From contig NC_069115.1 of NCBI RefSeq assembly GCF_025612915.1, forward strand, positions 8,359,492 to 8,423,491: 64,000 nt of DNA, in the 5' to 3' direction. The stretch comes from Crassostrea angulata (lineage: Eukaryota). The notes under the pieces were generated by a model that saw only the letters and a list, made by a program, of their open reading frames with translations, was not told where the DNA came from and did no database searches. Shown piece after piece: positions 845 through 46,412 of the stretch. The position numbers were made by a program, and so were the translations under genes. The stretch's first letter is position 1. Each line of letters begins with the position of its first letter.

Positions 845-1700
845 AACTTTGTTCAAATGAAGGGCCACACCCTCTTTCAAGGGGAGATAATTAAGATATA
901 TTGAAAATTTGTTGGTATTTTTCAAAATTTTCTCAAAAACTATAAGGATAGAAAAGTTGTAACTTGTATTGAAGCATCCTCAGGAAGTGTAGATTCAAGT
1001 TATATCAAATTATGGTCCCCGGGGGTAGGGTGGGACCACAATTGGGGGATGGATTTTTACATAAGAATGTATAGAGAAATTAAATCTTTAAAAATCTTCT
1101 CAAAAGTATAATTTGGACAGAAAAGCTTAAACTTGTGTGGAGGCATCCTCAGGTAGTGTAGATTCAAGTTTGTTCAAATTATGGTCCCCAGGGGTTGGGT
1201 GGGGCCACAATGGGGGGGTCAAATTTTTACATAGTAATATATAGAGAAAATCTTTAAAAAATCTTCTTCTCAAAAAACTATTTGCCCCAAAAAGCTCAAA
1301 TTGGAGTTGAAGCATCTTCAGATAGTTTATATTCAATTTGTTTAAATCATGGTCCCCAGGAGTAGGGTGGGGCCACAATGGGAGGATGGATTTTTACATA
1401 GGAATATATAGAGAAAATCTTTAAAAATCTTCTTCTTAAAAACCAATAGGCCAGAAAAGCTCAATTTGGAGTTGAAGCATCCTCAGATAGTGTAGATTAA
1501 AGTTTGTTCAAATTATGGTCCCAGGGGATAGGGTGGGGCCACATTGGGGGTGTGTGTGAATTTTTATATTGGAATATTTTGAGAAAATCTTTAAAAATCT
1601 TCTTCTCAAAAACTATTTGGCCAGAAAAGCTCAAACTGGAGTTGAAGCATTCTCAGATATTGTAGATTAAAGTTTGTTCAAATCATGGCCAGCTCTGGAT
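845..1700 (+). repeat. Satellite, ~170-bp unit x ~5 (motif atggtccccaggggtagggtggggccacaatggggg ... gagaaaatctttaaaaatcttcttctc)
   Basis: Direct tandem copies starting near 845, 1011, 1181, 1351, 1521; the same family occurs inverted at 45385-46440. Confidence 0.8.
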
Positions 1701-11300: not shown

Positions 11301-14300
11301 TGATGGTCAGGGCAATGTCATTAAGTTTACGACAGTCAGAAAGTTAAGTTAGTCGTGTAGCGTATTAGTGGTCCATCTGTCTTCTTGTCTGTCCTCAGTG
11401 ATCCCTTTCAGTTTCAGTGTTATATGTTTCCCTTCTGCGTAACGCAGTTTTGCACCAAATTTTCATAATTTTCTGTGTTTATTTCTGTTCATTTGTTTAT
11501 TTTCTACTGGAAATGATAAAATAACTTATGTACATGAGACAAACTGTGTCACTAATTACAGTAAAACTCGGTAATAGCGAAGTCCTAGGAACCAATGGAT
11601 TAACTTCGTTATATCAATGATTTGTAATATCCATATAATTAACAAATTCGTACTTAAGTCTAATAACTATTATAATACTAGTAGTGAATTCACTATGTAC
11701 ATTATTTTTTTATCAGACTACAATTTTTGCTAATTTAGGGAAATACATTTTTTTTATACCGTTAAAGATCAGACTGTGAATTGAAGAATTTATATGAAAA
11801 TATTTACATCTACAAAGTATTATTCCCTCTATTTCTTATGGAAACCTATAGTTAAATCATAGCTCTATAGAAACAGCCAGACTGAAATCTACACGCCCCG
11901 TTTATCGATTGGTTGAAATCTACAGCTGCTGAAACTGATAAGAAACTGACAGGACAGATATTGACACGCCCTGTTTATCGATTGGTCCAAATCTATAGCG
12001 ACCTAGAAAAAATCATGGACTGCACGAAATAATCATAACGATGTCAGACTCAAAGTCTCACAGGAGACGATTTGGCTGTTTCTTTTAGCTAACATACTTA
12101 GTACGTACATTGACAGTAATTTAGTGAATTTTACTAACTTTTCATAATCAATTTATCAATTAGCTAAAAGAAAGATGTTAATATAAACAATAAAATGCTT
12201 TCTTTGTTGATTCATTCGGGTTATGAAGGTAGCAATCAATGCAGAAAAAATTTACATAACCCGCTAATTTAAACGCAGGTTATGTATTTTTTCTGCAATG
12301 TCGCTACCTTCATATCCCGAATGAATCAACAAAGAAAGCATTTTATTGTTTAGATAAATTCATTCAAACTTTTATGATAAATGGTAGTGCAGACTTTTTA
12401 AACTGAGTGTGAAGAAATAAGTTATAAAAGTGTCAAACTTTGTTATTATTCAGCTTTTACTGGACTCAAAATCAGTTCGCTCTGTCCGTAAATTTCTTAT
12501 GCCCAAATTTATTAAAACCGTCAAATTTCGCAAAGATTTGTAAAGAATTTTATCGGGTACTTAATCTGTATTTGTACTTAAGGAGTTTACTGTACTTAAA
12601 TTGTCCAAAGATTAAGGTCACTGACAGGTACATTTAGTGGTTTAATTATACTTGAGCAGTACTGCTTTATGAGATACCCTTTCTTAAAAAAATTATTGCG
12701 TTAACTTTAATATATAGAATGTTAGAATTTTTATTTTTATAAACATATTAATCAAACTTAAGGTTTAAATTGCTGAGTGTGTTTTGTTTATGCTTGTAAT
12801 AGGATGATGAGTTTGTTGTGTACAACACAGACCAACAAATGCTGAGTTATCTCGTTGAGTTCACCATTGGCAGTGAGATTCCTGTGGAGATATCTGTTGA
12901 AAAAGAGGCTTTAGAAAGGGAGGAAACTTTGTCAGAGAGCAGTATTGGTGAATGAATATTTTAGTAACTTATTTAGAATGAAATATTAAACATTACAATT
13001 TTCAATCTCCATATAAGAATAAAAATTCTTACGGGTAACTTATTTGTAAGTATATTATTTGAAAAAAGACTTTAAGATATTTCTTTGCATTGGTATTTCT
13101 GATATATAAAACAAATAAACAGTCAGTAAATAAACTGAAAATGTATTTCTTTGTATTTAATTAATTCTGATGCGTGATTTGTTAAGAACAGTTACAATTA
13201 AAATTGAATTCCAAGATATTTTGCTGGTTGATTTTGCAGACATCAGCGACGTACATGATGTCACAGACCCATTGACAAAGGTCAAGGCCGGCTTGGTTTC
13301 CAATGACGACACCCCAGTTACTCTACTTGAAGCCCATATACGAGCTAAATTGATTGATCTGGCCGGGGAGGTAAACAATGAAATACATACACTTTACGCA
13401 GTACTTACAAAATAAAGCCATTTCAACAAGAGCTTGGACTTCGGCAGTATCTGTCAAACTTGGATTTGATGAAGGCAGAGTCTACTCAAGGTCAACTGTT
13501 CAGTCATTGGCTTAATGATATGAAAACATTGAAAGGAATAACCTTTGTCCAACTTAATCCAGGGATGAATATTTTAGTTAAAACAGCATCAATGTCACAC
13601 AATCTAGCAGACCTTATTTTAAAAAAATCCAATTTTGACAGTCTATTAAATATATATATATATATATATATTTATAAGCTGCCTAAGGTAATCCAAAGAA
13701 GGAATTCAACATTTGACAGCTTGTTATGATGATTAAATTATATAATTACATCCCACCAAAAGCCAAAGAAGCCACATTTTTAAGGAGGTTTAGTGATAAA
13801 CAGTTGACCAGTGTGGTCATCTTCATACAAATTGAATGAACTTGTCACCACTGATAATTGGCTCAGTAAATTTCTATATCATTTATAGACAAAAACTATC
13901 ATGTGAAATCTTTATTTAAAGGTAAGAAAATTCTAAAAATAGCCATAACCAACAATCCTCATTTAAGTGAAAACTCAGAAGATTTTATGTTGCAATACTA
14001 AAACTGTATGTAAAAAAAATGAACAGAATACCTTTACAATGTTTGATTGTAATAGTACATCAGTATTTTGTTCGGTTGTCAGGTGGTGGTGTTACAAGAG
14101 TACCACAACAATGATTGATTGTAATAGTGCATCAGTATTTGGTTTGGTTGTCAGGTGGTGGTGTTACAAGAGTACCACAACAACTATTGATTGTAATAGT
14201 ACATCAGTATTTGGTTCGGTTGTCAGGTGGTGGTGTTACAAGAGTACCACAACAATGATTGATTGTAATAGTACATCAGTATTTGGTTCGGTTGTCAGGT

Positions 14301-17300
14301 GGTGGTGTTACAAGAGTACCACAACAACTATTGATTGTAATAGTACATCAGTATTTGGTTTGGTTGTCAGGTGGTGGTGTTACAATAGTACCACAACAAT
14401 GATTGATTGTAATAGTACATCAGTATTTGGTTCGGTTGTCAGGTGGTGGTGTTACAAGAGTACCACAACAACGATTGATTGTAATAGTACATCAGTATTT
14501 CGTTTGGTTGTCAGGTGGTGGTGTTACAAGAGTACCACAACAACGATTGATTGTAATAGTACATCAGTATTTGGTTCGGTTGTCAGGTGGTGGTGTTACA
14601 AGAGTACCACAACAATGATTGATTGTAATAGTACATCAGTATTTGGTTCGGTTGTCAGGTGGTGGTGTTACAAGAGTACCACAACAACGATTGATTGTAA
14701 TAGTACATCAGTATTTCGTTTGGTTGTCAGGTGGTGGTGTTACAAGAGTACCACAACAACGATTGATTGTAATAGTACATCAGTATTTGGTTTGGTTGTC
14801 AGGTGGTGGTGTTACAAGAGTACCACAACAACGATTGATTGTAATAGTACATCAGTAATTGCTTCGGTTGTCAGGTGGTGGTGTTACAAGAGTACCACAA
14901 CAACTATTGATTGTAATAGTACATCAGTATTTGGTTTGGTTGTCAGGTGGTGGTGTTACAAGAGTACCACAACAACTATTGATTGTAATAGTACATCAGT
15001 ATTTGGTTCGGTTGTCAGGTGGTGGTGTTACAAGAGTACCACAACAACTATTGATTGTAATAGTACATCAGTATTTGGTTTGGTTGTCAGGTGGTGGTGT
15101 TACAAGAGTACCACAACAACTATTGATTGTAATAGTACATCAGTATTTGGTTCGGTTGTCAGGTGGTGGTGTTACAAGAGTACCACAACAACTATTGATT
15201 GTAATAGTACATCAGTATTTGGTTCGGTTGTCAGGTGGTGGTGTTACAAGAGTACCACAACAACTATTGATTGTAATAGTACATCAGTATTTGTTCGGTT
15301 GTCAGGTGGTGGTGTTACAAGAGTACCACAACAACAGTGACCAGGCCCTGGAGGCTAAGTACGTCTTCCCGCTGGATGACATGGCCGCCGTGTGCGGTTT
15401 TGAGGCGTTCATCAACGGGAAACACATTGTTGGGGAGGTGAAGGAGAAAGAGACAGCCCACCGGGAATACAAGCGGGCCGTCCAGGAGGGGCATGGGGCG
15501 TACCTCATGGACCAGGACGAGGAAACGCCGGTAAGATCAAGATGTTCACTTTAGACACAATGGTAATAATATGATCAAGGTCAATCAACATTGCAGTTTT
15601 ATTGAAAATAAAAGCCAATTTCAATACATTTGTACTATTTAAATATCATGGTATACTAAAATTCCCCTCTTGTGAATATATCACCAAAATTATTATGACC
15701 CACAAAGTTCACAGTACTATGACTCACAAAATTTAAATAAAAGTCACTACGAAAATTACTCATTGACAATTTCAATATTATTTATACAATGTATATTAAA
15801 ACATCTCATTTGTGAATCTATAACCAAAATTACTTTGAATCACAGAGTTAAGTATATTGGCAGTCATATCTTTGTTACTGTACAGGAGGTATTCACGGTC
15901 AGCGTGGGGAACCTCCCCCCGGGGGCTGTGGTGGTCATCAAGATCACCTATGTCACAGAGCTACAGGTGGACGGTGACCTCATCAACTTCCGTCTCCCAG
16001 GCAGCGTGGCGCCATGGAAACAAAAATATGTTGACGCACCGGAATTCAAAGACAAGGTCTCTGATTCAACATTGATTGTTTGAATATTTATTGAAAGCTT
16101 CTTAAAGATTAGCTACAGAACCATAATTCTATGTATAAAGGTTGGATAAAACTGTGCCCTAGAATCCATCATCACAAATTTTTCTTAAGAGCTACTGTTT
16201 TTTCGGTTTTTCAGGCAATGAATTTAATAAGAAAATGTGTCTTTTTATGTAAATGTAGGACTGGGACACAGTCCAGGTGGAAGATACCTGCTGTAGTGTA
16301 CAGGTGTATGTAGACATGCCCTTTGTTATATGTCTGTATTTTTGTCTACTCTATGTTATAGGACTGGGATACAGTACAGGTGGGAAACACCTGCTGCAGT
16401 GTACAGGTGTATGTAGACATGCCCTTTGACATCCGGAGTCTGGAGTGTCCCACGCATAAAGTACTCTCCAAGGTAATCTATAGATACACTGTACAGTCAC
16501 TGCTCTGATATTACCTGACTGATCAAAAACAATTAATGAACTGGTATTTTCTAAGATTAAACTTTGAACATTTTGATGACATGAGCATAATGGTTAAAAT
16601 TAATAAGAAACACATTGGTGCATTTCAACCTTGTTGGGGTTTTAGAGCAATATTTTTCATGTAAAATAATGTTTGCAGAGAACGGCCACTAAGGCTGTGG
16701 TGGAAATTCCAGACGAGTCAGACCAGACATTGGAGGATGGATTCCAGCTTCTGATTGGTTTAGCAGAAATCCACGTTCCGCGGATGTGGGTCGAGTCGGA
16801 TGAAGGAGAGTCGCAGGTAGTTACAAGGAATTCTCATGAAATCAATTACTTTTATTTTTCAGTCATATACTGACAGTAGATGGAAATTCATAACATATGA
16901 TTTAGATTAAGTAATTTACAAGAGAACCCAGGTATATGTTAGCAAGCAAATTGCAATGAGTATAACTTATTGTTACTTCATTACTTTGTCATAGAGTGAG
17001 TAACGTTTAATTTTATTACTTTACATCAAGTTGAAATTTAAAGTACAGCATGTATGACCACAGAGCAATTTAAAAAAAAATCGAAATTCACTGAAAGTAG
17101 ATGAACATTACATTAGGGTTATCTATATTAGGCATGCATGTTGACCTTTTACCCTGAGTTTGAGGCTGATGAGGAGTCAGAGGTTGAGGTCATCCTGATG
17201 ATTGACAGCTCCAACTCCATGAAGGACTCCTCCCACCGTGATGCCAAAAAGGCTGCTCTCCTTGTGTTACATCTCATGGATCCAACATGGAGGTTCAATG

Positions 17301-20300: not shown

Positions 20301-23300
20301 ACTCTGCATAATTGACTTATAGAATAAATAATTTATTTTTAACTGGGTTTTACAACGGAAAAATCTGGTCATTGAAATGGTGAAAATGGCGGGCAGGCAG
20401 GCGGGCTGCTGCCAAAAGGGTACCCTCATTGTACGGATAACTCCTCCTACAGTTTTCAAGATAGGAAGTTGTTCTTTTGTGGATCAATTATACATGTATC
20501 AGAGGTGTGCATATTGCTAGGATTTTGATTTCCGATGATTTATGAAAAAAATACCAGCTTTTGAACTTAGTCATTTTTTGGCAAAATATTGAATAAGGAT
20601 ACCCTCATTGTACGGGTAACTCCTCCTACAGTTTTCAAGATAGGAAGTTGTTCTTTTGTGGATCAATTATACATGTATCAGAGGTGTGCATATTGCTAGG
20701 ATTTTGATTTCCGATGATTTATGAAAAAAATACCAGCTTTTGAACTTAGTCATTTTTTGGCAAAATATTGAATAAGGATACCCTCATTGTACGGGTAACT
20801 CCTCCTACAGTTTTCAAGATAGGAAGTTGTTCTTTTGTGGATCAATTGTACATGTATCAGAGGTGTGCATAATGCTAGGATTTTGATTTCCGATGATTTA
20901 TGAAAAAAATACCAGCTTTTGAACTTAGTTATTTTTTGGGGAAAATATTGCATATAGAGTACCCTCATTGTACGGATAACTCCTCCTACAAGTTTCCAGA
21001 TAAGAAGTTGTTCTTTTGCAGATCAATTGTACATGAATCAGAGGTGTGCATATTCTATGATTTTGATTTTTGATAATTTATGAAAAAAAAAAAATACCAG
21101 CTTTTGAACTTGGTCATTTTCTGGCAAAATATTGCATATAGGGTACCTTCATTGTATGGATAACTACTCCTACAGTTTTCAAGATAGGAAGTTGTTCTTT
21201 TGCAGATTAATTGTACATATATCAGAGGTGTGCATATTCCTAGGATTTTGATTTCTGATAATTATATTATCTTCTCTCTCCTTGGCCCAATCTTGCTCAT
21301 CCTACACCCACAGAGTGCCTTTGGGTAAAGGGTGTGCAGTGACCTTAAACTATGTTTGAAAGGTTAAGGTCATAGCAGAATTATATAAAAAAATCCTTGT
21401 GGCATATCTTCTCTCTGTTTGGTCTAATCTGGCTCATACTTAACTCACAGAGTGTCTATGGTCAAAGAGTGTGCAGTTACCTTATATGAAGTTTGTAGGT
21501 CAAGGGTCAAGGTCATGTTGAACAACACAAACATCCTTTTCGGAGCATATTTTTTCTTTATTTTGGCTCTATGTGGCTCATACTTCACTGTGATAAAAAG
21601 AGCTTTTGAGTAATGGATTTGTAGTGACCTTGAACCAAGTTTCAAGGTCAAATGTGAAGGTCATAGCAGAACTCTATAAAAAAAAAATTGTGATCGAAGC
21701 ATATCTGATCTCCCTTTGCTCCAATCTAACTAATATAAAATGATACAAGGAACAGTTGTTCAGGTTAGCGGTGTGGCTGATTGGCCTCTTGTTTACAAGA
21801 TGAGGTTGCTATGATATCTATTTCAGGATGAGGTAATGATACAGGGTTGTCTCTAAGACCCGGGAGCCAGGGAATTCCCCCACCTATAATTCCTTAATTA
21901 CCCCCTTCTACTTTTTCATTTCCTCCTTCTACTTTAATTTTTAGAGACAACCCTGATGATATCACCAATATCTCAAGATGGTGTTAATGTTGTGGTGAAA
22001 TCTACTTCAGGATGAGTTTGACATGTGATGATACATGTATTAATTTCAGGATGGGGTTATTTTGTTGTATATTTCAGGATGAGGTTGATGTGCTATATTT
22101 TTCAGGATGATGCTGTTGTGTTCTATATTTCAGGATGAGGTTATCCCAGATTCTTTCCCAGATGTTGGGGATTTACTGATCAAAGAGGATGTAGATATGC
22201 TGAAATACCTTTCCTGGGACAATGAGGTAATGATCCAATTAAATCTTTCAAAATTAAAGAATTATGATTTTTGTTTAGTTATTATATGGCAGAAGGACTC
22301 AACACAAGACACAACACAATGAAATTTCTAAAGCTTTCAACTAACTGATTTTAACAGATTTAAAGGGACTTAGACACGATTTGAGCTCTTTTTTTTTCAT
22401 TTTTAATGTCTTGAGTGGTCAATAAGGATGTTTTTAATGCTTTTTCAAAATTTGAAAGTCAAATATCGAGTTACAAGCAAGATACAGAGGTTAAAATTAT
22501 TTGTTTTGTAAACAAAGCTCGAGTCTTGTTATTGGTTACATATGTCTTGTATTGGTAAACGTGTCAATCTAATGTTGCATTTTGTTGTTGGTAAAATTAT
22601 TTATAAACACATTGAATTAGTTTATCTTGTTTCCATACGTTATTTTGTCAAAGAAATGGTAATTTCTTTACTTTTCATTATTTGTAAACAATTAATTATA
22701 AGACTCAAGCTTTGTTTACATAACCTCTGAAAATAAATATTTTCTTAACTAATTTATTGAAAAACAAAATTATTAAGGAAGGAGTCTTTTCTGGTTTTCG
22801 ACTTGTCAAACGTAAATTTGATTAATTGTTCATTAAATCAAGATGAAAGGAAATTAAAATAGTATATTTTTCTTTCTTTTTTACTATCATACAACTTGGC
22901 ATAGAAAATTGTATTCAATGTTTAGAATGGAACAAGGACTATATTTTTGGCGTAGGAAAATATCACATGTTGCGCAATTCAGAATTGCTGCAGATTATAT
23001 ATATATAATGAGTCTGTTTTAGCATTTTAAAAACAATAACAATAATGTTGGAATTTTTTTTACTAATGTGAACTAATAATATGATACTTGGGTTTCAGAA
23101 TATGTTTTTAAAATATGATTTGCCTATCAAATAAAATTTTTATAAGCTTTTTAAAGCGCCCATTCTATACATTGATTTTTGTGGAAAAATCACTAATATC
23201 AGTTTTTCTCTCTTATGAAACGGTCAATATATTAGCTTTTCTGTCAATTTATATCTTTATATAAAGTCTTCATAATACATTAAAATTAGAAATGCTTTAT

Positions 23301-26300: not shown

Positions 26301-29300
26301 AAAAAAAAAATTATTAACAAATTTGAACATTTTTTTTATTTGAATTTGAAGATGGAAGAAGTGGGAGATTCCTATGAAGAATTTTTTGACGGAGGAGGAG
26401 GTGGAGGAGGAACAGAGAAAATTGAAAGTACTGAGGTATACATGTATATATAAATTATCATAACAGAAACTTGTTCCAAGGAGTCAATTCAGGTTGTGCT
26501 GCCAGGCCTAGATCATTAGATCAAAGGTCATTAGATGTTTCAATCAGGCCTGGCAACCACAATAGAATTATTTCATGATGATAAAATAATTATTATAATT
26601 TATGATGATGACTTTGGCTGACTACACAAGAGTCTCAATTGTCATCACGAATATTTCTTGCCTTAAACCAGTCTGGATGTAACAGGGCTTGGTCGTGATT
26701 AATATATAACATGATGATAAATATTAAATGATGATGAAATCATTACATAACCCATCTATTATTAAGGTAATAACATAACCCACCAATTATTAACTTTTTT
26801 AAAAGGTAATTTATTACAGAGCCCATATAAGGCCTCCAGATTACTTTAATTTTGATTGTTACTGAGTCTAAAATTTAAAGATTTAAATGTTGCAGGCAGG
26901 AACTAAACTTTTATTACAAGATAAATAAAGTTTTCTTATTAAAATTTTGAATAATCATAAATACCTGGTAATCATTACAGGGTTGTTCAATGTTGTCTGA
27001 TGATGATGAAGAAGACGACCTTCAACCCATAGTGATGGACATGGGCTCTCTCTTCATGAAGGCGGGGTTTGCTGGCGACGACACCCCTCGGGCCGAGTTT
27101 GAGACCACGGTAGGGCGACCCAGGCACCAGGGGGTCATGGTGGGCATGGGACAGAAGGATGCCTATGTTGGAAAGGAGGCCACAGGTAAGATAAATGTAA
27201 TCAAACAGGTTTCAGGTAGACTTGTGGAATCAAAGTCAATGGTAAGGCAATGAAATCATTGGTCACAGGTAAGACAATTTAATAAAAAAAAAAAAACACA
27301 GGTAAGATACTGTAAACAAAGGTCCAGATAAGACAATTTTTAAAACGTCACAGGTAAGATAAGTAAATCATAGGACACAGGTAAGACATGGTAATTTAAG
27401 GTTACATTACTTGTAAGACAAAGTGTTTGCTCTGGTAGGTTACATAAGACAGTGTGATTGTAGGTTACATGTAAGACAGTGTTTTAATTTATAGATTACA
27501 AACAAGACAATGTAATGGTAGGTTACAAAATACAGTGTGATCGTAAGTTACAGGTGATACATTGCAATCATAGTCACAGGTAAATACAGTTATGTAAATA
27601 ATTAAATATAGGATACAGGTAAGACAGAGTGGTGGTAAGTTTCATCTGAGACAGAGAGATAATTATTATTGTAGGTTAAAAAATAACCATTGGTTACAGA
27701 TAAGGTAATGTAAACAGAAGTCACAGGTCCCACTTAAAAAAGGACCAACAGGTTAGACTCACTCTCAGCTATAGGTAAAACAGTATGTCAGTCGTCATAA
27801 GTCACCAGATCACTCTCAGCTAGGTAAAACAGTATGTCAGTCGTCATAAGTCACCAGATCACTCTCAGCTAGGTAAAACAGTATGTCAGTCGTCATAAGT
27901 CACCAGATCACTCTCAGCTAGGTAAAACCATATGTCAGTCATCATAATTAGTCACCTGATATCTCAGATAGGTAAAACCATATGTCAGTCGTCATATAAG
28001 TCACCAGATCACTCTCAGCAAGGTAAAACAATATGGCAGTCGTCATAAGTCACCAGATCACTCTCAGCAAGGTAAAACAATATGTCAGTCATCATAATTG
28101 GTCACCAGATCACTCTCAGCTAGGTAAAACAATATGTCAGTCGTCATATAAGTCACCAGATCACTAGGTAAAACAATATGTCAGCCGTCATAAGTCACCA
28201 GATCACTCTCAGCTAGGTAAAACAATATGTCAGTCGTCATAAGTCACCAGATCACTCTCAGCTAGGTAAAACCATATGTCAGTCATCATAATTAGTCACC
28301 AGATCACTCTCAGCTAGGTAAAACCATATGTCAGCTGTCATAAGTCACCAGATCACTCTCAGCTAGGTAAAACCATATGTCAGCAGTCATAAGTCACCAG
28401 ATCACTCTCAGCTAGGTAAAACCATATGTCAGTCGTCATAAGTCACCAGATCACTCTCAGATAGGTAAAACAATATGGCAGTCGTCATAAGTCACCAGAT
28501 ATCTCAGATAGGTAAAACCATATGTCAGATGTCATATAAGTCACCAGATATCTCAGATAGGTAAAACAATATGGCAGTTGTCATAAGTCACCAGATCACT
28601 CTCAGCTAGGTAAAACAATATGGCAGTCGTCATAATTAGTCACCAGATATCTCAGCTAGGTAAACCAATATGTCAGTCGTCATAAGTCACCAGATCACTC
28701 TCAGCTAGGTAAAACCATATGTCAGTCGTCATAAGTCACCAGATCACTCTCAGCTAGGTAAAACAATATGTCAGTCGTCATAAGTCACCAGATATCTCAG
28801 ATAGGTAAAACAATATGGCAGTCGTCATAAGTCACCAGATCACTCTCAGCTAGGTAAAACAATATGGCAGTCGTCATAAGTCACCAGATCACTCTCAGCT
28901 TGGTAAAACAATATGTCAGTTGTCATAAGTCACCAGATCACTCTCAGCTAGGTAAAACAATATGGCAGTCGTCATAAGTCACCAGATGAGTAAAATAAGA
29001 GTTACTATTGAGGTTTTTCTTTTTACAAGTAGAATTTTTCAAAGTTTCTATTATACACATTTCATTTATTTCATTATCTTTGACTTTGGTAATAACTCTA
29101 TGCTACAGTAATTCAGTTACCATCATACAAAGATATTGTGAATTCAAGGTACAAAATGTTTGTGGAAATGGAAACTTAGAAAAGCTTACAATCATGACAA
29201 CTAATTCTAGTGTGTTCTTTTTACCAGGTTCCAAACCTATAGCTGGGAAAGTTTTAAAAGGAAAGTCACCAGGTATATTCACAAATGTACTACCAGTTAG

Positions 29301-31227
29301 TTTTAAACACATGATGATTCATCGCAAGGCATGATTACTCAGTTTGTTCTTTTAAGTTACTTTTATATTTTTGGACTGCAGGCAAACAGTGAAATTATAA
29401 CTTAATTAAATACAAATTTTAACTTAAATGTAATAGCTATGCATATCCAGTCCAATCCACACTTGGCAAAAGTTGTTTCCCTTCGCTGGGTCAACCCAAA
29501 GGTCAAAAGGGACAAAAACAACTTTTTCCTTCTAATTACGCAACCAAGTATTTTGGCGTTTTGTGATGAAATCTTTTTATTAGAATTTTATCTATTCCTT
29601 CGATATATGTGTTGCCTCATCTTGAGGCAATCAAAATAAGAACAGAAACGGAATTTTATTGTCAAATAACAAAGTTACTAACCTCTAAACTACAAAGGCT
29701 ACTGTGAGAAATCTATGGGTTTTTCCTCAAAGATGGCGGCCAAGGGACATAACTTTTGTAAAGCGTGGATTGGACTATTCCTAATTTGCCATTTTAACAA
29801 ATTTAAATGAAGAAAATTCGACACATACTGTTCTTTCTTTCAAAAAAAACCCCCATGTTCTTTGACTCTTGCTTTGCTTCATGCGTCAATTAATTATTTT
29901 AGGTAAATATCTTTACTAATCAACATTCAATTAAAGGTCCACACAATGGTTTGTGCATTTTACCTACCAGTATTAGTAATATATTTTGAATGTACATTCA
30001 GGTTCAGCATAAATTTATGGAGAGATTTTGAATAGGCCATGTCTTAATCAAACCCATGGGGATACTACATGTACATCTGGGAAAGACAACTATAATTTTA
30101 TTGTAATCTACATAGAGTACGTTAAAGTGACTTTAAATTTGATAAATAAATATACAATAATATATGAGCCCAATATTTTCCAGACTTATATATTTATAAA
30201 TTTATGCATATTTAATACATATCTACAATCAAAACAACATCTAGTCTATATTAGTTTTATTATGATACAGAAATTAATTATAGTAAACTTATTAAACTTA
30301 TTATAAATAAAATTTATGTGAAAAGAAAGAATAGTATTTTATGTGAAGAGAAAAAATAGTGACTTTAATTTATGAACAACATCTAATTACTGTACTTTCT
30401 TTATAGCTGATAAGGCCCAAGATAAAGTAGTGTTGCTTGGCAAAATGTCATCAGGTAAAAAAATTGATTCAGAATCAATTATTCAAATTTCAAATTTGAC
30501 TGTTAATTTCAAAATTTATTTAAAAAAAAAAAAGCTCTTTTAGACTTACTGTCTTACAAAAATTGGGGTTAAATAAATTTATTATTCTTTTCTTTGGTTA
30601 GTAGAAGAAATCAAGTCAAAAGTAACGAAATTAAAATCATAATATAAAAAATTGAGTAAACACACTGTCAGGCAATTTTTTGCCAATTATTATGTTGAAC
30701 AATATATGGCCATATTTGTTCAAATAACTTATATTTAAAAATGCTACAAAAAGTAATATCAAAACTGTTACCATGGTTACAGTAAATTATCAGTCAGACA
30801 TGTTTTTAAACAACTGGAACAAGAGAAATTAATTGTGTATTATTTTAATTAATAGAAAGGACGAAAAAGAAGCTAGCTGGTAAAGAAAAAAGTTACAGTA
30901 AAGTTTGCAGTAGTGATGAATCGGATGTTGATGATCTCGGATTTAATTTGTTTGGTGACGACGATGACGATGACGACTATGAGAGGCCGCAAAGTTTTAA
31001 ATCTACAGGCAAGTTTCTTTTGGTTTATGACATAATTAATACATTTACGTTAGCATAATTTTCTATTCAATGCCATGCAGTTCTGCAGAAATATCTATTT
31101 TGTTAAAAGGATTTGCTCTTTCAGTGTTGATTTGCTTCATACAGAATGTCAATGAATTATTATACCCCCCGCAAACAAAGTTTGGGGGGGTATATAGGAA
31201 TCACCTTGTCCGTCCGTCCGTCTGTCC

Positions 31228-31265
<38 letters not shown>

Positions 31266-34200
31266 CTGTGCAATCGTGTCCGGTCCATATCTTTCTTATG
31301 GAGAAACATTGGAAGTTCTTACTTCACACAAAGATTGCTTATGACCTAAGGGTGTGTCATGACCTTGACCCAAGGTCATTCGGGCAAGGTCAAGGTCACT
31401 GGCAGAAAAAGTGTAAAATTCGTGTCCGGTCCATATCTTTCTTATGGGGAAACATTGGAAGTTCTTACTTCACACAAAGATTGCTTATGACCTAAGGGTG
31501 TGTCATGACCTTGACCCAAGGTCATTCGTGCAAGGTCAAGCTCACTGGCAGAAAAAGTGCAAAATTCGTGTCCGGTCCATATCTTTCTTATGGAGAAACA
31601 TTGGAAGTTCTTACTTCACACAAAGATTGCTTATGACCTAAGGGTGTGTCATGACCTTGACCCAAGGTCATTTGGGCAAGGTCAAGGTCACTGGCAGAAA
31701 AAGTGCAAAATTCGTGTCCGGTCCATATCTTTCTTATGGGGAAACATTGGAAGTTCTTACTTCACACAAAGATTGCTTATGACCTAAGGCTGTGTCATGA
31801 CCTTGACCCAAGGTCATTTGGGCAAGGTCAAGCTCACTGGCAGAAAAAGTGCAAAATTCGTGTCCGGTCCATATCTTTCTTATGGGGAAACATTGGAAGT
31901 TCTTACTTCACACAAAGATTGCTTATGATTAAAGGGTGTGTTATGACCTTGACCCAAGGTCAATTGAGAAAGTTCAAGGTCATTGTTTCAAAAAAGCTAA
32001 ATTCTGTCTGTGTCATGTCTTGTATGAATGGAAATATAAGAAGCTAAAAATTAACAGTTTTCAAAAATAAAGCAGTTGTTATTTATAGAAAATGGACAGT
32101 GAAATAGATTCATCCAATATTTTCTATAATAGCAAAAATACACGCGTTATGATTTTTTTCTTAGCGGGGGGTATCAATTGTGAGCTTGCTCACAGTACCT
32201 CTAGTTTATATAAATATGTTTACTAAATTAAACAGATTTATCAAAATATTCATATCGTATCATGTACCTGGTGACATGTCGTATCATGTACCAGGTGACA
32301 TGTCGTATCATGTACTGGGTACTATGTCGTATCATGTACCTGGTGACATGTCGTATCATGTACCTGGTGACATGTCGTATCATGTACCTGGTGACATGTC
32401 GTATCATGTACCTGGTGACATGTCGTATCATGTACCTGGTATCATGTACCTGGTGACATGTCGTATCATGTACCTGGTGACATGTCGTATCATGTACCTG
32501 GTGACATGTCGTATCATGTACTGGGTACTATGTCGTATCATGTACCGGGTAACAAGTCGTATTATGTACCATATATTGTATTATGTACCGGATAACAGGT
32601 CAGTAGGAGATTTTAAATGTCTAAAGGAAACATAAAAAAAAATTACTGTATACAGGGAAATATTCCCCCCTGTTTTATTTTCGCCCCTTTCGCCCTCGTT
32701 GTCATTGGGCGAATTAATGACTGGGCAAGTTTCAATATCTCAAATTATCTGTTTTTAAACACAACTGTGTGCAGATGGGGCAAAACTTTAAGCAAGTGTA
32801 AGAAAGGCTAGTAATGAATTACACAATAAATTCAAATGTTAGTTATAAATGCATTGATTTGTTACTGTAAACAAAGACGACTGACCTTGGGCTACTAGGT
32901 ATTGTATACAGGGATATTTTCACCCGGTGTTATGTTTCCCTTTCAATGTCTTTCAACTTTTCAATATCAGGTCATGCACTCTATAATTATAATGATTTTT
33001 TTTTTGTTAAAGTTATAGGTTTAATAGTCCTTTATGACAGATTTCAGGCAGTTAGGTTGTCGTCGTTACAAATATTATGATTTAATTTTCTACTCCTTGT
33101 TTACATGACAAAGAATTGTGAGCCCTGTATCTTGCTTGTAACTCTACAACTGACTCTCAAATTTCATTTGATCATTAGATATACATTTCTAAAGCATTGT
33201 AAATAATAAAAACAGAAAATTGAATTTGACCAAAATCATGAGCGTGGTCCATTAAAATAAAATGATCTTTTACATTAATCAACTTCAGGAAGGATATCTA
33301 GTATAATTGGACAACCACTGTCTGCAAAAAATTTAAGAGTGGATACTTTTAAGCCACCAGAGGTACAACTCCAATCAGCTCCTTCTTCAATGTCTGGATT
33401 GGCATTACCCGGTGTGATGAGAGGGGGCGTTTCTTCCAGAAAGGTACATGGAAATGTGTCTAAAGGAGCAGTTCCAGCAGAGAAATCCAAAGGAGTTGGT
33501 TATGGGGCATCTGAAAGCTCTTTATCTGATCTAACAAAAACAGGATTTGGAAGGCTGTCACCACAGCCAACACAAGAAATATCTGAACAATCATTATTTG
33601 GATCAGGATTTGAAGTACCTCCACCGGAACAATCAAGAGATTTTCAATTTGGTCCATCATCACAAACAGGTCAGCCATCAGCACCTGCTGACCCAGTGTT
33701 TGGATCATCAACAGCAGGATTCGGAGCACGACCAATGATGGCATCACAGGCTATGGGAGGATCATTATTTGGATCAGGATTTGGAGCACCTCCATCGGAA
33801 CAATCAAGAGGTTTTCGATTCGGTCCATCACAAAGAGGTCAGCCATCAGCACCGGCTGGCCCAGTGTTTGGATCATCAACAGCAGGATTCGGAGCACGAC
33901 CAATGATGGCATCACAGGCTATGGGAGGATCGTTATTTGGATCAGGATTTGGAGCACCTCCATCGGAACAATCAAAAGGATTTGGATTTGGCTCCTCATT
34001 ACCCATGGTACAGTCATCAGCACCTCCTGTCCCAATGTTTGGATCATCAGCAGGATTTGGAGTACCACAACAGGCTGCTATGGGTGGATCGTTATTTGGA
34101 TCAGGATATGGAGCACCTCCATTGGAACAATTAAATGGATTCGGATTTGGTTCATCAATGGAACAGCCATCGCCACCTGGTGCTTCATCATTTGGGTCCT

Positions 34201-36890
34201 CACCAGCAGGATTTGGAGTACAGCAACAGACTTTTGGAGGATCATTATTTGGATCAGGAGGCAGAGCAATGCCACAAATATATTCACTACAGTCTGATAT
34301 GTCTTCAAGTGGTTTTGGGTTTGGAGTACCTAGAAATAGATCACAACCAGCTTCTCCTCCTCCTCCACCAGCCGCTCCTCCACTACCTCCTCCACCACCA
34401 GTAGGACAGTCCAGAGGGATTGGCTTTGAGGTATCACCAAGAAACGAAATGATTCCATGTGGACCTGAAATTATATCTAGAATGCAAGGAGCAACAGAAG
34501 GAGGGCTGCCACCAGCCGCTCCTCCTCCACCTCCACCACTGCATCCACAGTCATCACCACCAGCGCCTTCTCCACCTGCACCTTTGCATTCTTCACTTCT
34601 GCGTACACAATTTATGCCTCCACCGCCACAGTCTTCTCCACCACATCCACCAAAACCACGTCAATTATTGCAACAACAAATACAACGTGGAAAAATACTA
34701 AAAAAAGCAAGCCCGATCATACGCCCTGCTTCTTTTTGTGCAAATATAGCACTATCTGAGCCAATACTAGAAAGCCAACAGGAAATTACCCCATTATTAG
34801 ATCTTGAAGTTGATGAACTTTTACCTGATTTATACCAGAGACGTTTGGCAGCACCTCCATCTCCCCCGCCAATTTCAAGAAAAAAGTCGGAATCACCTAC
34901 ACCATTAAGTCAACAGTCTGAGAGTGATTCAGTGAGGGCTGTAAAACCTCGATTAAAAAAAAAAAAGCTGAAAAAAGAATTCACAATGGCACGTGATGCA
35001 GAAATTTCAGATGCAATTTCATATACAGAGGAAGAGCAAGATGCAAAGAAAAAACCATCTGGAGGTAAGTACAGACAAACATTAATTTGTTTTTAAATCA
35101 AACAAAATTTGTGTTCTGCAACTTACTATTATTTGGTAACTTTTGCTTTTATTTTTATATTCATTTGACAATGAGAGCAAATGAGGCAATAATAGAAAAT
35201 GTTGCAATAGATCCAAACATCCAAACAACACAGTATCCGTGTATAACATAACCATATAAAGCTTAACTGTTTTAAAAACTTAGTTTAAGGTATACATTTA
35301 CTCAGAATGAAAAAACATTTCACTGATGATAATGAAAAACCATCTATTCAGTGTTAAAGACATATCATGGTAGTGCTTCTTTTCACTTTCCAAAAAGTAG
35401 GTCAATGACCTACTTTTTGAGATAATGGCCATTGAATATTTTTTGAAAAATCAAGGAAAATCCCATAAAATTTTACACTATATCTGAAATTGTCTTAATT
35501 GTGAAAAAAAAAAATACAAATTGCGATCTGAATTTGAGAACTCAAACCCTGAGTAAACAACGTCCTTAATAATATTTCACAACACATCAAAATCATCATG
35601 TTGTAAATTCCTGTGCAGCATTATAGAAATAAGTTCTGGTATAGGTGTAGGTCACCTTAGCTGCTTTGGTAACAATTTAGTGAAAGTCAGTTAAATTTCT
35701 GAATTTTATATGCCAATCTAGGATGAAGTGCATGTTTAAAACACTTTGGTAAATTCAGACTTATTATATAAAATTTGTGTTGTAGAGTTCATCTTAAAAC
35801 AGTACTTAGCATCCCCTGATCGGAAAGCTAGAGGTCGTTCAATGGTGAGGCGGTCATTTACAGGAAAGCCGAAACAATCATCTAGTGAGGTGAGAGACTG
35901 TTTGCTTATTGATTGGAACATATGCATGTGTAGTAGGGTAAAGAGCATGGAAAGCTACTGCAGATATAGCACCATTACACAGTCAGGGTACTCAAAGTTA
36001 AAATAATGAGTTTTATAGAAATTATGACATACAGTCAGGCTTGGGGCGAATTACATTGTAAAGTAATGCATTGCATTACCATTACTTTATGAATTTGGGC
36101 ATTAAATTACCATTACCATTACTTGATTTTCTTGAAGTAATGCATTACATTACCATTACATGACTAAAGTAATGCATTACCATTACCATTACTTTGTTTT
36201 AAAAAATTAAAGCTAACTAAGAGTTTTTGTAAATGTTTCAAATATAAAACACTCTTTTAACATATCTACAGCTTCATGCTCAGTATCAGGTTCAAATTCA
36301 ATGACTATACAAGAGTCGATCATTCTTTATTTGCTCAATGTATAATCATCTTGTGGCATTATGAACAACTTATTACGTAAGTAAAATGAATAGATATTTA
36401 TATATAGACATTTGGCATGATACAATGTCAGATACAAAATAGAGACACAGAATTACATGCATAACAAAAAACAATTTATTGAATAATGTTGCGGTTATTA
36501 AAAGCTAAATAGAGATATTTCCCCAGATTACACAAATCTTTATAATTTTGGACACTTAATTGTATTAATTCATAAACAGATGGTTTTTCCCAGTAATATT
36601 CTTTCTATATTTTAATCGTATATCTTTTTACTGAGGACACTTTAAGACAAAAGATTGCTATTGCACTTTTTGATCGAAGTTTCAAAGGGTTCATCTTTTA
36701 ACTGCATCTTATTAGTTTGAAAATCTTCCCAGCTATACTAAATAAATGTTTTACAGGAGCAATCGAAGCTTGGACTGAAAAGTACTGTTTGACGATCTTT
36801 ATCTTAGAATATATTAATTGTGCAATAATAGAAAAAATACAAGAATCTTGTATTTTCTATCAGTCCAAACTAATGTACAGGATACTTAAT

Positions 36891-36949
<59 letters not shown>

Positions 36950-39900
36950 AGTAATTATTTTCAAATGGGTTATAATATTGGAAGTGATATTGATTTTCAT
37001 CGTGGATGGACAGTGCATTCACTTTGCTTTTAAAGGTGTATGTCTGTCTCCTATTCTATTGGGACATAGCGAAGGGAAGGGGATTGGGGTGTTTTGCACT
37101 TCTTATAACAATAGATTGTTTTGATACTTAGATTATCCTGGGGGCATAGTGTGTTGTTGACACATTTTTAATTGAAGTGCAAACTAATCGGAGTAAATTG
37201 TTTAAATGATTAAAAACTCTTAATAACAACACTCTTAAAAATGATATGAAATTGTGCTGTCATATTTAGTAATATTAACAATTCAAAAATGAATTTTTAA
37301 AAATCTTTTTTTAATAATACAATTAAATCATATTTATCCCAATAATTATCTCTTTCTCCTTTAAAATCAAATTTAATCAAATTCAATTTCAACTATTCAT
37401 TTATTCATCACATTTTTTAAAGTGAACATGCATAAATAAGCATAGTAATGCAAAGTAATGCCATGTAATGCCAGCATTACACTAGATTTTGGAAAGTAAT
37501 GAATTACATTACCATTACTTGTAATGCTAATTTAGTGGCATTACACATTACTAGCATTACTTTGAAATCATGTAATGCATTGCAATGCATTACCATTACA
37601 TTTAGCATTACCCCAAGCCTGCATACAGTATAACGAGTAAGTTCTGTCGTTGTTTATTTTCTGCGGTATTTTGTTCAGCTGCATGAATCCCTCTACTGAA
37701 ATTCTTGATCCCTGGGACAGGGGTTGAAGCTCTATGGTGGGACCAATATGGCCATATACTATTAGTTAAAATGTATTAAATCTTAGAAAATCTTCTTCTC
37801 TACTCCCACACATGTGGGCAAAAAACTGAATACATGGTTATGATGTCCACAAACTTATAATGTATTAAATCTTCTTCTTCACTCCCACATGTATTTTGGA
37901 AAAACCAAATTTTGAAATTAATGGTTCCTGGGTCAGTGGTTCGGCGGTAATGAAAATGTATTGATTAAATAAGTATTAAGTAAATGTACTATCGAACTTG
38001 AGAAAGATAAAGTCAAATATTGTAAAAAGTTAAGTTGTTAATTGCATGCGTTATTATGTTCACAATGTCCTGACGTTAAATTGTGAAATTGACTGCCCAA
38101 GCCATAGGAATTAAGTTGAGGTTTTTATTTTGGGGGGGTGGGGTAATTAGGGTAATTATGTGGGCTTTTCCTTTGCATTTTATACTTGTAATAAGCTGTA
38201 TGCATAAATGGAACTGTGATTATTATAAAAGATTGACTATTGAAGGCCTGCAGACTTTAGACTTCAAAATTAAGCTTAGAATTAAGCTGAAAATGCAAAC
38301 ACGGTCTGGTACTCAGGTGACCATAAGGCTTGTGGGCCTCTTGTTTTTATAACTCAACAATGAAATTGTTGAAAATAATACTAGGCATATGAATATTTTC
38401 TATTTTAAGAATGAAATGACAACACTGCTTTTACTGGATGTCACCCCTTTACCTCTTGGTGTGGAGGATGCAGATGGCAATTTTATTGAAATTGTTCCCC
38501 GAAACACCACCATACCTTGCAGAAAAAGCCAGGTCAGTGAGACTGTTAGTTCAGGGCTTTGCCTGAAACTGTGGATTCTTACTTGAATTTTATATTATAA
38601 TATGTGTAAAATTGCAAGATGCATAATTTATGTACACTTTGCAGATTTCAAAACTTTTTACTTAATATTGACAGATCTGTACTATTAATAATCAAACTTA
38701 ATAATAGAATATATGAGTTAGCAATTTTATATTCTCGCAATTTGATGCAAAATGGTCAATTCGCAGAATTACATGTAAATATTATAATAAATAAATCTTT
38801 AGTAATCAGTGTTATGGTTGCAGTTACTAGGGATGAGCCCTAGTCATTATTTGATCCAGCTGCGGGATGCATGTATCACTTTAGATCAAAAATATGTCAT
38901 GTATTAAATTTTATATATATCAATATAATAATGGCCAGTTATTTTGATAGGCTTCAGGTATGCTAAACTGATTGTACAGTAACTGTAATGTAATGGTTTA
39001 AAAATATAAAGCACACTCAGATTAAAGTTGTGGTAAATAATGAGAATACCATAATGATTCTTTAAATGAACTAAACAATCTTTTTTTATCAAGTGATCAT
39101 GTTTTGCAATTTTAGTGGTATAGGTATGTTCAAAAATTTTACTCAATAATTACCGTTCTGGAATTCACCTTTGCCTTTTTTTTGAATGCCAGTTAAAGAG
39201 ACATGGTGACTCAAACTTACATAATTCTTTTTTTGTAAAGATTTTTTATAAAATCAAAAAATTGGGAAGAAAGATAATCAAAGCCAAGTTATGTGCATTC
39301 ATCTGCACCAAAATGCAGACAAAAAATGTAATTTGAATGTCGGAAAAACGAAAATTACATGATCCAGAATGGTTTATAGTTTACGTCTAGCGTCATGTGA
39401 CTTTCTTCAACATCCATCTGTGATATTGGTTGCCAAGATATACATGTACCTTTGTTTGAATACAGCCGCCCTGTTCCTTTCTCGGGCGATCTTTTTCTTT
39501 ATGAAAAAACCTCGGTCTACCGACTTTTCGTTTTTCGTGGCTAGACTCCATGATTGTTTAATATGTTGTATATGCGCAATTGTAGAAGGAGGCACGAACA
39601 ATATTTACTGTTGGGCCAACAAGTAATTATATTTTTATCTGTAACAAATGAATTTTTACTTTATAAAACTTGTAATTTTGTGAAACTTCTTATGTTCAAG
39701 AACTGAACAAAATTTAGAAAAGCCACAGTGACCTAAAAATGTTGTTTTATCCAATTCACTTGTTTTTGCATCACCGTGTCTCTTTAATATTTTAATCATA
39801 TGATTATTTGACTGTAATATGCCATTAGATAAAATCTCAAAAACACATATCATACATGTACAATATGTGCAATACATGTACTACATATACATGTATCCTG

Positions 39901-42900
39901 TATTAGCTAAGACACACAACATTAACTGGCTTAGGACCCCAATACTTTCATACTTTTATTCTTTGTATTCTTCAGGCTTTCACATGTACTGATGCTGATC
40001 AGACTATGGCTGATATTCGAGTATATGAGGGCTGTTATAAAGAGGCCAAAAAGAACAACTTCCTGGGAAATCTACAGATTGTAAATAAACTAGTTTTAAT
40101 ATTAATCAAAACAGATTTTGTGTAATTAATGCATCAGTTGTATGACTCTGCTATTCTTGTTACAAAGTTTTGTTCTTAATGGAAATAGAAAGCAACTGAA
40201 TCCATCATCCATCTCTTGTCTGAAGTTGTTGAGACATTTGTTCAATAGATTTAACATCAATTAATATTCAGTCTACAAATGTATTCACAAGTCTGACTCA
40301 GATATTTTATTAAATCAAAACTGTACAATATTTATGAAAAGGAAAATATTGGAGGCACGACTGTGGGCAGCACTTGGGTCACTGTTACCATCGACATTGA
40401 TGCAAACGGTATAGTGACTGTGACTGTAAATGACTTAGAATCAGTCAGCCTGGGTTCATGTGAGTATCTTGTAGAAAAATTTAGACTAACTACATGAAAC
40501 TATAATTATTTTCCTTGCATACTCTGATCATCCTCAAGAGGCCATATAAAATGCCTCTTTCATGCATTTTTAAAGCCTATGATCAGTGCTGCCTAAGAGA
40601 TTGGAATTAATGAGAATTTACTTTCAAATTGCTTATACCGGTATAGTCATTACTTTCCATTTGAACAGTTACTGTAAATGCAGAAAAGAGAAAACTGAGC
40701 CGGGAACAAATAGAAAATATGATTGAGAATGCAGATAATGTCCAGTTTCCAGGCAAGGTAAGCAATTGCTATGGCTAGAGCCTGGAAGAAATAGCTATTT
40801 GCATAAATTGTAACCCCAATACTTTTGTCAAATTCTATGAACTCCATGAAGATATTAGGGAATGTGTTGATTAATAGGTAACTATAAGGTCATTGGGTGA
40901 AGGATTTTGATGTACCAGGTAGCATGTGGAAGGTGCATATCCTTGGACTAATTTTCTTTATTGAATTTCATTGTCTTAGCCCATACAGTTAAATCTTGGT
41001 ACCAGCTCTCACTCTAGTATGGATTGTGTTTGTGATGAGCTAATGACTTGGAGAGACCTATAATACATTGTTAAGTTACTGTAACAGTAGTACTGTTTAA
41101 TGATAGTAAATACACTAGACATTTTGTTTCTTGAATTGTTTTAAAACTTATATGCATTGCTTCAAACCCCCCAAAAACAATTTTTTCTAATCAAAGAAAA
41201 AATATCTTTGGATTATGCCATTGCATGTAGATTTGCCGTTGCTATGTTTGACTTTATTGTCTTTGAATGTAACAGGGGTGTTTATAAAATGTACATGTAT
41301 ATTCAATAAACATTAAAAAAAAATCATTACTAATGTCCTCACTGTGATCTTTAAAATGTTTTTTGTAGATTTCACCAAGAAGATTCCGACTACCAGCATT
41401 ACCAAGTGGACTGACAGAAAAAGGTAACTGTACAATCTAAACAATTCCTTCTCTCCACTGTACTACTGTACCTGTACAAGCACGTAGGATGCCATACATA
41501 CATATATTTCTATTGACTGATGTTCATTAATTTCTGTTTTGCATTGGCAGCTCTGGACGACATCAACAGCTATGGTATAGGGACGTCAGTTAGTAACATC
41601 AGGAAGAGGTCCCCCAACCTCAGCCTCTCCTCTCTCAGATCTGTGTTCAATATACAACAGGTATCCATCTCTCTCTTCCACTCCTTTGCTTCCTTTATTA
41701 TACAATATTTCAACTTTTTATTAAGAAGTCTACATTTATGACACAGAAGGAGTTTTTTGTCAACGTTTTTCACCCTTCTATTTGCAAATGTCTTGGCCCG
41801 TCATGAATTATCCCAGACTAATTTAGAAGTAGATACACTTTCTAAATAATACAGTTATTTGAAAATTGTTTTGAATATGTCCATTCTTAAATTCCCAATG
41901 ACATCAGGGTGAAAGGGGTAAAATTAAACAGGGCAAATATATTCTGCTATATACAGTATATCTATAAAAATTTACTTAAAAGTTTTTGGTTTTTAAATAT
42001 TTTCCAATGTCACATTGTCAATAAAGTCTCTTATACAATAGCAAGATAGCTGGCACATGCATCTATGTCTTTAAAATTGTCAAAGTCATACATGTAATTA
42101 TATAGTCATTAAAATTATGTCCAACAGAACAACTTATGGAAACTTGATGAGAGTTTGGAGGAAACTTTTGGAATTGATACAAAAAAATGCAGGGACATTC
42201 TTCAAAGAGCAGGTTTGCACTCGCTAGGTAAGTATTTGACAATAGTGTAAATACAATGTATTGTATATATGTGGGAGTCTCTTGACAAAGTGATAAGCAC
42301 CATAATTTATAATTAAAACTTAAGATATTATTTATTTGAAAAACCTTGAAACTGACCATGAAATTTAAATTAATTGAAAAATGTCATTCATTAGATAAAA
42401 GAAAAAGCTTCATTTTAATATTTTTTAAATATTAAATTTTTGAACATACTGGGTATGTTATGTAGTCAAGAGATTTTAATAAAAACTTAATTGACAGAAT
42501 ATATTATATGTACTAATATTTGAAAATCTCACCCTCATCTTGATCTTTAAGTCAAGTCTACTGTCACATACTAGCTGTTAGAATATTATCAATGTCATAA
42601 TTACATGTATGCATGTAGACAATATTTTCTCCAATTAAAAATTGGAAAATTGATTTTGGTTATTTGTGAATGTTATGATTGCATACCAGTGTGTACATGT
42701 TTTTAATATATACCTGTAATGAAGAGATAATTTTAATGCTTTTTACTACAGGTCAAAAAGTCTCTGAGGAAAGCATTGAAATCCTCTCCTCTGCACTGGC
42801 CCTGGTCCTCATTTACAAAGTGATTGCCCCAGAGTTATTCCCCATGGATTTTTCCAATCCAATTACGATTGCGACAGCGTTCCTAATGGGAGCCAAAAAG

Positions 42901-45384: not shown

Positions 45385-46412
45385 CCTTCTTGTGAGGCCA
45401 AAGAATTGTCCTGGGGCCAAAGTCTTAACAATTATAAAGAATCATCTGGCTGATAAGTTTATGAGAAGAAGATTTTTAAAGATTTACCCTATATATTCCT
45501 TTGATAAACTTTGACCCCCCATTGTGGCCCCACCCTACCCCTGGGGATCATGATTTTCACAACTTTGAATCTACACAAGTTTCAGCTTTCCTGGCTGATT
45601 AGTTTCTGAGAAGAAGATTTTTAAAGATTTACTCTATACATATGTTAAATTTCGACCCCCCCCCCATTGTGGCCCCACCCTACCCTCAGGGGTCATGATT
45701 TTCACAACTTTGAATTAACACTACCAGGGGATGTTTCCACACAAGTTTCAGCTTTCCTAGGTGATTAGTTTCTGAGAAGAAGATTTTTAAAGATTTACCC
45801 TATATATTCCTATGCAAAACTTCGACCCCCCCATTGTGGCCCCACCCTACCCCCAGGGGTAATGAATATTCCTATTTAAAACTTTGACCCCCCATTGTGG
45901 CCCCACCCTACCCCCGGGGGTCATGATTTTCACAACTTTAAATCTACACTACCTGATGATGCCTTCACACAAGTTTCAGCTTTCCTGGCTGATTAGTTTC
46001 TGAGAAAAAGATTTTTAAAGATTTACCCTATATATTCCTATGCAAAACTTCGACCCCCCATTGTGGCCCCACCCTACCCCCAGGGGTAATAATTTTCACA
46101 ACTTTGAATGTACACTACCTGATGATGCTTCTACACAAGTTTCAGCTTTAATGGCTGATTAGTTTCTGAGAAGAAGATTTTTAAAGAATTACTCTATATA
46201 TTTAAATGTTAAACTTCGACCCCCCATTGTGGCCCCACCCTACCCCCTACACTACCTGAGGATGCTTCCACACAAGTTTCAGCTTTCCTGGTCTTATGGT
46301 TCATGAGAAGAAGATTTTTGAAAATTTCTCAAAATTTTCATAAATTCCTAATAATCTCCATTTGCAAAAGGGTGTGGTCCTTAATTTTCACAACTTTGAA
46401 TCCCCTTAGGCT

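Follow-up and report, generated by a model that had tools for sequence, protein, structure and literature searches.

Boundary-spanning minisatellite at the splice donor of an actin-like oyster exon, with further tandem arrays at other exon-intron junctions of the same window

The 64-kb stretch of oyster DNA that was analysed (64,000 nucleotides, hereafter the window) is of animal origin and has a G+C content of about 33%. Between about 5.2 and 22 kb it contains a PARP4-like gene on the plus strand, with BRCT, PARP catalytic, VIT and vWA exons which, where they could be aligned, show roughly 80-97% protein identity to Crassostrea gigas XP_011429775.2. On the same strand, a coding exon resembling the N-terminus of actin is located at 26981-27185, with 67% identity to residues 8-65 of beta-actin. 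Its open reading frame runs from the acceptor AG (26979-26980) through 27185, and a GT follows at 27186. The end of the exon and the start of the intron read CCACAG/GTAAGA (a slash within a sequence marks the exon-intron boundary), and the authentic donor CAG/GTAAGA (27186-27191, plus strand) matches 8 of the 9 consensus positions.

The exon was compared with its counterpart in L011, a contig from metagenome data that belongs to a more distantly related taxon, which carries the donor at the same position and whose homology to the window stops at 27187. Both exons are 86% identical at the nucleotide level, with a dS of 0.78 and a dN/dS of 0.056. This ratio points to a constrained coding exon under strong purifying selection and, as far as sequence alone can do so, answers the objection foreseen in the sequence-only reading that exon 29 might not actually be expressed. 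The last codons of the exon belong to a conserved actin-like sequence (VGKEAT/VGKEVT), and its read-through ORF is present in many independent short-read assemblies. In all haplotypes the open frame extends as far as the acceptor, and in the compared sequence L013 the ATG is replaced by ATA; the exon is therefore probably internal. In other taxa, the actin-like exon is also under purifying selection and the intron position is identical (EAT/G or EVT/G). Within the 64-kb window, actin is represented by the N-terminal ~58 residues only, with no further actin exons found. The actin-like exon, the 585-aa ORF further downstream and the PARP catalytic exons, used as queries against protein databases, retrieved unspliced genomic ORFs or partial proteins only, and no spliced transcript or full gene model.

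Downstream exons were recognised on the strand of the actin-like exon at 33339-35096, 38425-38574, 39990-40122, 40321-40434 and 40665-40775. A 585-codon open exon in this region carries FG-type repeats, polyproline tracts and a WH2-like motif, and is followed by exons similar to the substrate-binding domain of HSP70; the actin-like and downstream exons could form an unusual chimeric gene or belong to several genes. Inside the long open exon, a tandem repeat of 159-168 bp (33590-34259) constitutes a coding repeat (GF/FG) whose copy number varies between individuals, with protein variants of 513, 530 and 585 aa. A downstream intron contains three arrays (31207-31982 and 32251-32570), none of which adjoins a recognised exon: (TGTC)n, a 146-bp unit present 4.9 times at 96%, and a 24-bp minisatellite (CATGTCGTATCATGTACCTGGTGA) of about 13 units with higher-order periods. 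Elsewhere in the window, tandem units of 145-170 bp at 930-1688 (plus strand) and at 45446-46247 (opposite strand) share the core CCCATTGTGGCCCCACCCTACCCC(C)AGGGG and resemble a family of dispersed repeats or mobile elements carrying tandem repeats internally.

At the donor of the actin-like exon begins a degenerate minisatellite of about 21 units of ~26-27 bp (27178-27758, plus strand). Its first unit spans the exon-intron boundary, being made up of 8 nucleotides of exon and ~18 nucleotides of intron, and its units carry the last 8 exon bases, GGYCACAG. The junction sequence GGCCACAG/GTAAGATAA recurs within the array as GGTCACAGGTAAGACAA, CGTCACAGGTAAGATAA, GGACACAGGTAAGACAT and others. Two subfamilies can be distinguished, a proximal one with GTCACAGGTAAGAYAA and a distal one with GGTTACAxGTAAGACAGTGTGAT. 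The exact sequence ACAGGTAAG was found six times in the 64 kb, every one within 27183-27616.

Because TRF overlooks the proximal part of the array, which is the most decayed-looking one, copies were counted by mismatch instead, using the 14-mer TCACAG/GTAAGACA with no more than 4 mismatches. A total of 15 intronic copies were recognised in 27186-27760 (575 bp), against 0.3 expected from the background rate of the window and 1.07 ± 1.02 from dinucleotide shuffles (maximum of 6 in 2000), which ruled out a chance origin. The copies are spaced by 25-39 bp, or by two to three times that distance at decayed units, from which about 21 units are implied; the period given by TRF was 25 in the window and 27 in the compared sequence L012. 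The number of mismatches increased with distance from the exon, albeit as a modest trend (Spearman rho 0.57, P = 0.026). Both observations agree with the sequence-only reading, in which about 14 donor repeats over ~540 bp with increasing divergence had been described. Five intronic pseudo-sites (27269, 27302, 27354, 27381 and 27619) retain the perfect CAG/GTAAGA 9-mer and reach up to 433 nucleotides from the exon. Youth, gene conversion or selection could be the cause of such perfect distant 9-mers.

The junction array is directly adjoined, at 27758/27759, by a 49-bp minisatellite (27759-28987, plus strand) for which TRF reported 25.0 copies, 90% matches and a higher-order period of 194 bp (4 units). 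Every unit carries TAG/GTAAAAC and CATAAGTCAC, and AGGTAAAAC occurs 23 times within the array. Tandem 49-bp units with a donor-like GTAAAA core had been proposed here; the array itself was recovered with its 25.0 units, whereas the core turned out to be a weak donor. By our own reading, TAG/GTAAAA agrees with the donor consensus at 6 of 9 positions, compared to the 8 of 9 computed for the authentic site.

With regard to its origin, the 49-bp unit shares two motifs with the junction unit in the same order, TCATAaGTCAC (10/11) and AGGTAAaACAAT (11/12), with an extra 16 nucleotides between them. In a gap-tolerant alignment, the 49-mer and the junction consensus scored 31, a value reached by none of 2000 shuffles (11.2 ± 2.5). 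Given that an unrelated 21-bp unit from the donor array of another exon scored 28 against the same consensus, common descent is likely but not proven. We lean moderately towards a derivation of the 49-bp unit from a decayed junction unit that would have acquired a 16-nucleotide insertion. The direct abutment of both arrays, and the fact that one of the shared motifs lies outside the donor consensus, fit such a derivation better than the competing view, according to which the 49-bp array arose independently, as an intronic minisatellite or one derived from a mobile element, adjoins the junction array by accident and has a GGTAAAAC core that is coincidental. This competing view is the less probable of the two but deserves to be kept in mind, as the unrelated 21-bp unit aligns nearly as well (28 vs 31), the core is weak (6/9), and 16 nucleotides of the unit have no counterpart in the junction unit. 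Speaking against it as well, no second copy of the 49-mer was detected in the 64-kb window or in the loci of the other taxa compared; the JGI metagenome contigs also gave 0 matches, although that collection probably lacks the host genome and is thus uninformative on this point.

Genomes of C. gigas contain satellites associated with Helentrons and MITEs, and short tandem arrays are abundant in oyster introns. Unlike repeats borne by mobile elements, the junction units start inside an exon and contain exon sequence, and neither terminal repeats nor dispersed copies were present in the window. Likewise, a search of the window for inverted or terminal repeats flanking the array yielded none that was convincing.

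The arrays were then traced in short-read contigs, 15 of which, assembled independently, ruled out an assembly artefact. Seven of them, each from a different run, follow the window collinearly and break off where the 49-bp array begins; one of these is 100% identical. Eight contigs from different sequencing runs, one of which was found in 13 samples, join 27434 to 28921 and thereby lack the segment 27435-28920. In this common short allele the donor array has lost its distal half, and only ~1.3 units of the 49-bp array are left. Another contig, L005, has its end precisely at 27434, which is what a heterozygous branch would produce. The short allele (8 contigs) retains 7 recognisable donor copies, the long one (7 contigs) 15-16. 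In L012 and L013, 9 copies were counted in 290 bp and in 336 bp, respectively; their unit arrangements differ, as do the numbers of units, and a higher-order duplication of ~112 bp is present. Since the distal units deleted from the short form are also present in L012, which represents a more divergent lineage, that form is a derived 1.49-kb deletion. Because a common allele does without 27435-28920, most of the array is dispensable; taken together, these contigs show an array that is real and unstable. Upstream of the exon, the common short haplotype is also missing 147 bp (26718-26864), and it differs from the window by 5-11% in flanking sequence.

The question of whether the junction gave rise to the array or the array to the junction was addressed through L011. 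There, the exon ends in GGTCACAG/GTGAAAAC, with the donor at the same position as in the window, and neither junction copies nor any tandem repeat were found in 996 bp of its intron. At position -6, L011 carries T, which is the consensus base of the repeat, while the exon of the window itself carries C. This match fits an ancestral GGTCACAG/GTAAGA junction as the template of the array. As the units include exon bases and L011 has the same exon end without an array, it is the junction that seeded the array and not the reverse, in keeping with the proposal in the sequence-only reading that the splice junction acted as the seed: the units hold the last 8 nucleotides of the exon, and GGTCACAG/GT exists in L011 without an array.

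In the opposite scenario, an intronic or transposon-borne minisatellite would have come first and one of its units would have been captured as the donor of the exon. Repeat units with donor-like cores are able to create splice sites, as Zhuo et al. are said to have reported in 2007. Nevertheless, in L011 the donor sits at the same place and the exon ends in GGTCACAG with no array, the last codons of the exon form part of the conserved actin-like VGKEAT/VGKEVT sequence, and terminal inverted repeats and further copies are absent from the window. We consider a capture of this kind scarcely credible, L011 having largely refuted it. A related model, reportedly put forward by Rogers in 1989, Zhuo et al. 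in 2007 and Gao and Lynch in 2009 (as cited in PMC3087553 and PMC2812944), explains how introns are created from segments duplicated internally in tandem or from tandem arrays. The oyster array is similar in that duplicated AG/GT segments supply extra splice sites. In contrast to that model, no new intron is formed here, and the donor position in L011 shows that the intron predates the array; creation of a new intron by tandem duplication was rejected, since L011 has the same donor position without repeats.

Arrays of comparable structure were observed at five other junctions of the window, as expected from the earlier suggestion of a locus-wide pattern. A 21-bp donor array at 9763-9916 (junction 9766/9767) repeats CTATGTCAG/GTATG about 7 times next to an exon whose homologue reads ...KIDLCQ/LIRDVV. 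An acceptor array of 18 units of 72 bp with 96% identity (14036-15335) leads to the exon start at 15306, which corresponds to DLAGE/ in the C. gigas protein; its unit comprises the acceptor and the first 30 nucleotides of the PARP4-like VIT exon, with 18 exact copies of TTGTCAG/GTGGTGG. From its sequence, the last acceptor copy alone would be productive, as the upstream ones are predicted to read into a stop. A 113-bp duplication at 16249-16474 includes the acceptor at 16362 and ~66 exon bases. A further acceptor array, with a period of 28 bp and 5 copies of YTTCAG/GATG (22011-22144), precedes the exon start at 22134. Finally, a decaying 29-bp donor array at 57512-57830 (junction 57515/57516) follows a protein-kinase exon (...NIIHR/DLKLEN), for which a contig look-up returned none. 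In the acceptor-side arrays, upstream copies hit a stop within ~11 codons.

These arrays are spread over three gene regions, lie on donor as well as acceptor sides, and have units of 21-113 bp. Junction-anchored loci represented 5 of 37 tandem-repeat loci, against 1.56 predicted by random placement (P = 0.015), or P = 0.003 when the 113-bp duplication at 16362 was counted in. As the exon coordinates used for the placement test are partly approximate and come from one 64-kb window, this excess is suggestive rather than established. Looking for clusters of donor- or acceptor-like sites independently of annotation gave too much noise to be of use, because GT or AG occurs by chance in any tandem array. 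With ~6 of ~80 junctions affected here, oyster and perhaps bivalve genomes might carry such arrays at a sizeable share of their junctions, above what random duplication gives, but we regard this extrapolation as doubtful.

The type of structure described here is already known. In human F7 (37-bp VNTR of IVS7), IFI6/6-16 (intron 2, with 25 pseudo-sites), CBS (IVS13), LMNB2 and PDGF (intron 4), the first monomer of a minisatellite spans the exon-intron boundary (Borensztajn et al. 2006, PMC1557585). The first unit of F7 lies across the boundary of exon 7, and the identical pseudo-sites that follow are functional yet silent, since the most upstream site is chosen by 5'->3' scanning (PMC1557585). 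The most upstream donor alone is also used in LMNB2 and PDGF, while in IFI6 and CBS splicing also takes place at the first pseudo-sites (PMC1557585). As in F7, the first unit of the oyster array holds the end of the exon together with the donor, which is thereby repeated along the intron with identical pseudo-sites, and the array is polymorphic in length. It differs in that 8 rather than 4 exon nucleotides are included, and in that F7 has few (5-9) and near-identical units, whereas the oyster array is old and decayed, with about 21 mostly diverged units, and is followed by a second, younger array of 49 bp. The spliced site was shown experimentally in F7, while the oyster array is known from its DNA sequence.

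Similar elements of amphioxus, termed mirages, have units of 10-160 bp, can flank an exon at either end, vary from one haplotype to another and leave splicing undisturbed; they were noted as possibly a general phenomenon or peculiarity of cephalochordates (PMC3087553, PMC3902484). The oyster arrays resemble them in their units across 5' or 3' exon boundaries, in the presence of several per gene or genome, in copy-number differences between haplotypes, and in cryptic AG/GT signals that would not be expected to interfere with splicing. In contrast, the present locus is molluscan, and the somatic instability and correct splicing demonstrated for amphioxus mirages have as their counterpart here a locus read from sequence. 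At the actin-like exon we found four features of boundary-spanning minisatellites: head-to-tail units within 10-160 bp, a terminal unit across the boundary, identical or near-identical pseudo-sites and allelic length polymorphism. No report of such arrays in a mollusc was found in the literature searched, a limited collection.

Considering all of the above, we interpret the array as a boundary-spanning minisatellite of the mirage type, a near-neutral by-product of tandem duplication which would be tolerated because splicing occurs at the site next to the exon, and which is probably functionless (with a probability of roughly 0.78). In the proposed sequence of events, a segment of ~26 bp, consisting of the last 8 nucleotides of the exon and the first ~18 of the intron, would have been duplicated in tandem, probably through replication slippage, unequal exchange or end-joining, and the duplicate would then have expanded to about 20 units. 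The exon-proximal copy alone would be under selection, as the presumed spliced copy, if exon definition and the 5'->3' scanning demonstrated by experiment for F7 apply here; the remaining copies would be intronic and free to drift, which would lead to the decay that is seen. The 49-bp unit would have arisen at the distal edge of the array and expanded recently to 25 copies. Turnover of the arrays would be quick, through gain of units, loss of units and large deletions, with probably no function involved.

As regards splicing, we infer that the exon-proximal donor is used exclusively, for which the purifying selection on the exon and the premature stops predicted for pseudo-site use speak indirectly. 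Exon definition would favour the site nearest to the exon, and this preference would account for the acceptor-side arrays too. When the frame of the exon is continued into the intron, the first in-frame stop is encountered at 27251-27253 (plus strand), so any pseudo-donor from 27269 onward would give a premature stop.

It is conceivable that the donor array has been retained for a function, either as a landing pad or decoy for U1 snRNP (acting as a splicing enhancer or in protection from premature cleavage) or as a set of regulated alternative donors that tune expression through nonsense-mediated decay. Such a role would be in line with the five pseudo-sites identical to the authentic 9-mer, with junction arrays being commoner than random placement predicts, and with the use of the first pseudo-sites in human IFI6 and CBS (PMC1557585). 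The decay of the copies with distance, their variable number between individuals and the common allele without the distal donor half and nearly all of the 49-bp array are hard to reconcile with it. Moreover, the exon of L011 is strongly constrained without any array, and the acceptor-side arrays are alike in structure and would be left unexplained by a function based on U1. A functional array is therefore improbable in our judgement.

Under the preferred interpretation of a near-neutral duplication by-product, arrays would recur at other junctions because short tandem duplications arise at a high rate in the genome, selection tolerating, among the duplications that touch an exon, only those which span a junction. 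Pure neutrality does not by itself explain the ~3-4-fold excess of junction-anchored loci; the selected master copy may keep re-seeding the arrays. If the excess holds genome-wide, it would imply a mutational process focused on junctions or a long-term re-seeding of this kind.

Identical splice sites placed beside a real one constitute a natural experiment in how the spliceosome chooses its site, and arrays of this type have been proposed as a source of new introns and of shifts in exon boundaries. In practical terms, equally good splice sites can mislead gene predictors, and the arrays break short-read assemblies, as illustrated here by the long-allele contigs that stop at the 49-bp array. 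Boundary-spanning arrays have been documented so far mainly in a few human genes and in amphioxus. The occurrence of five or six of them in a single 64-kb oyster window, with long and short alleles segregating, suggests a spread beyond cephalochordates, and they may be frequent in the highly polymorphic, repeat-rich genomes of marine invertebrates. If this is true, oyster genomes would offer a natural system in which to study the choice between identical sites, and the sliding or gain of introns from mirages.
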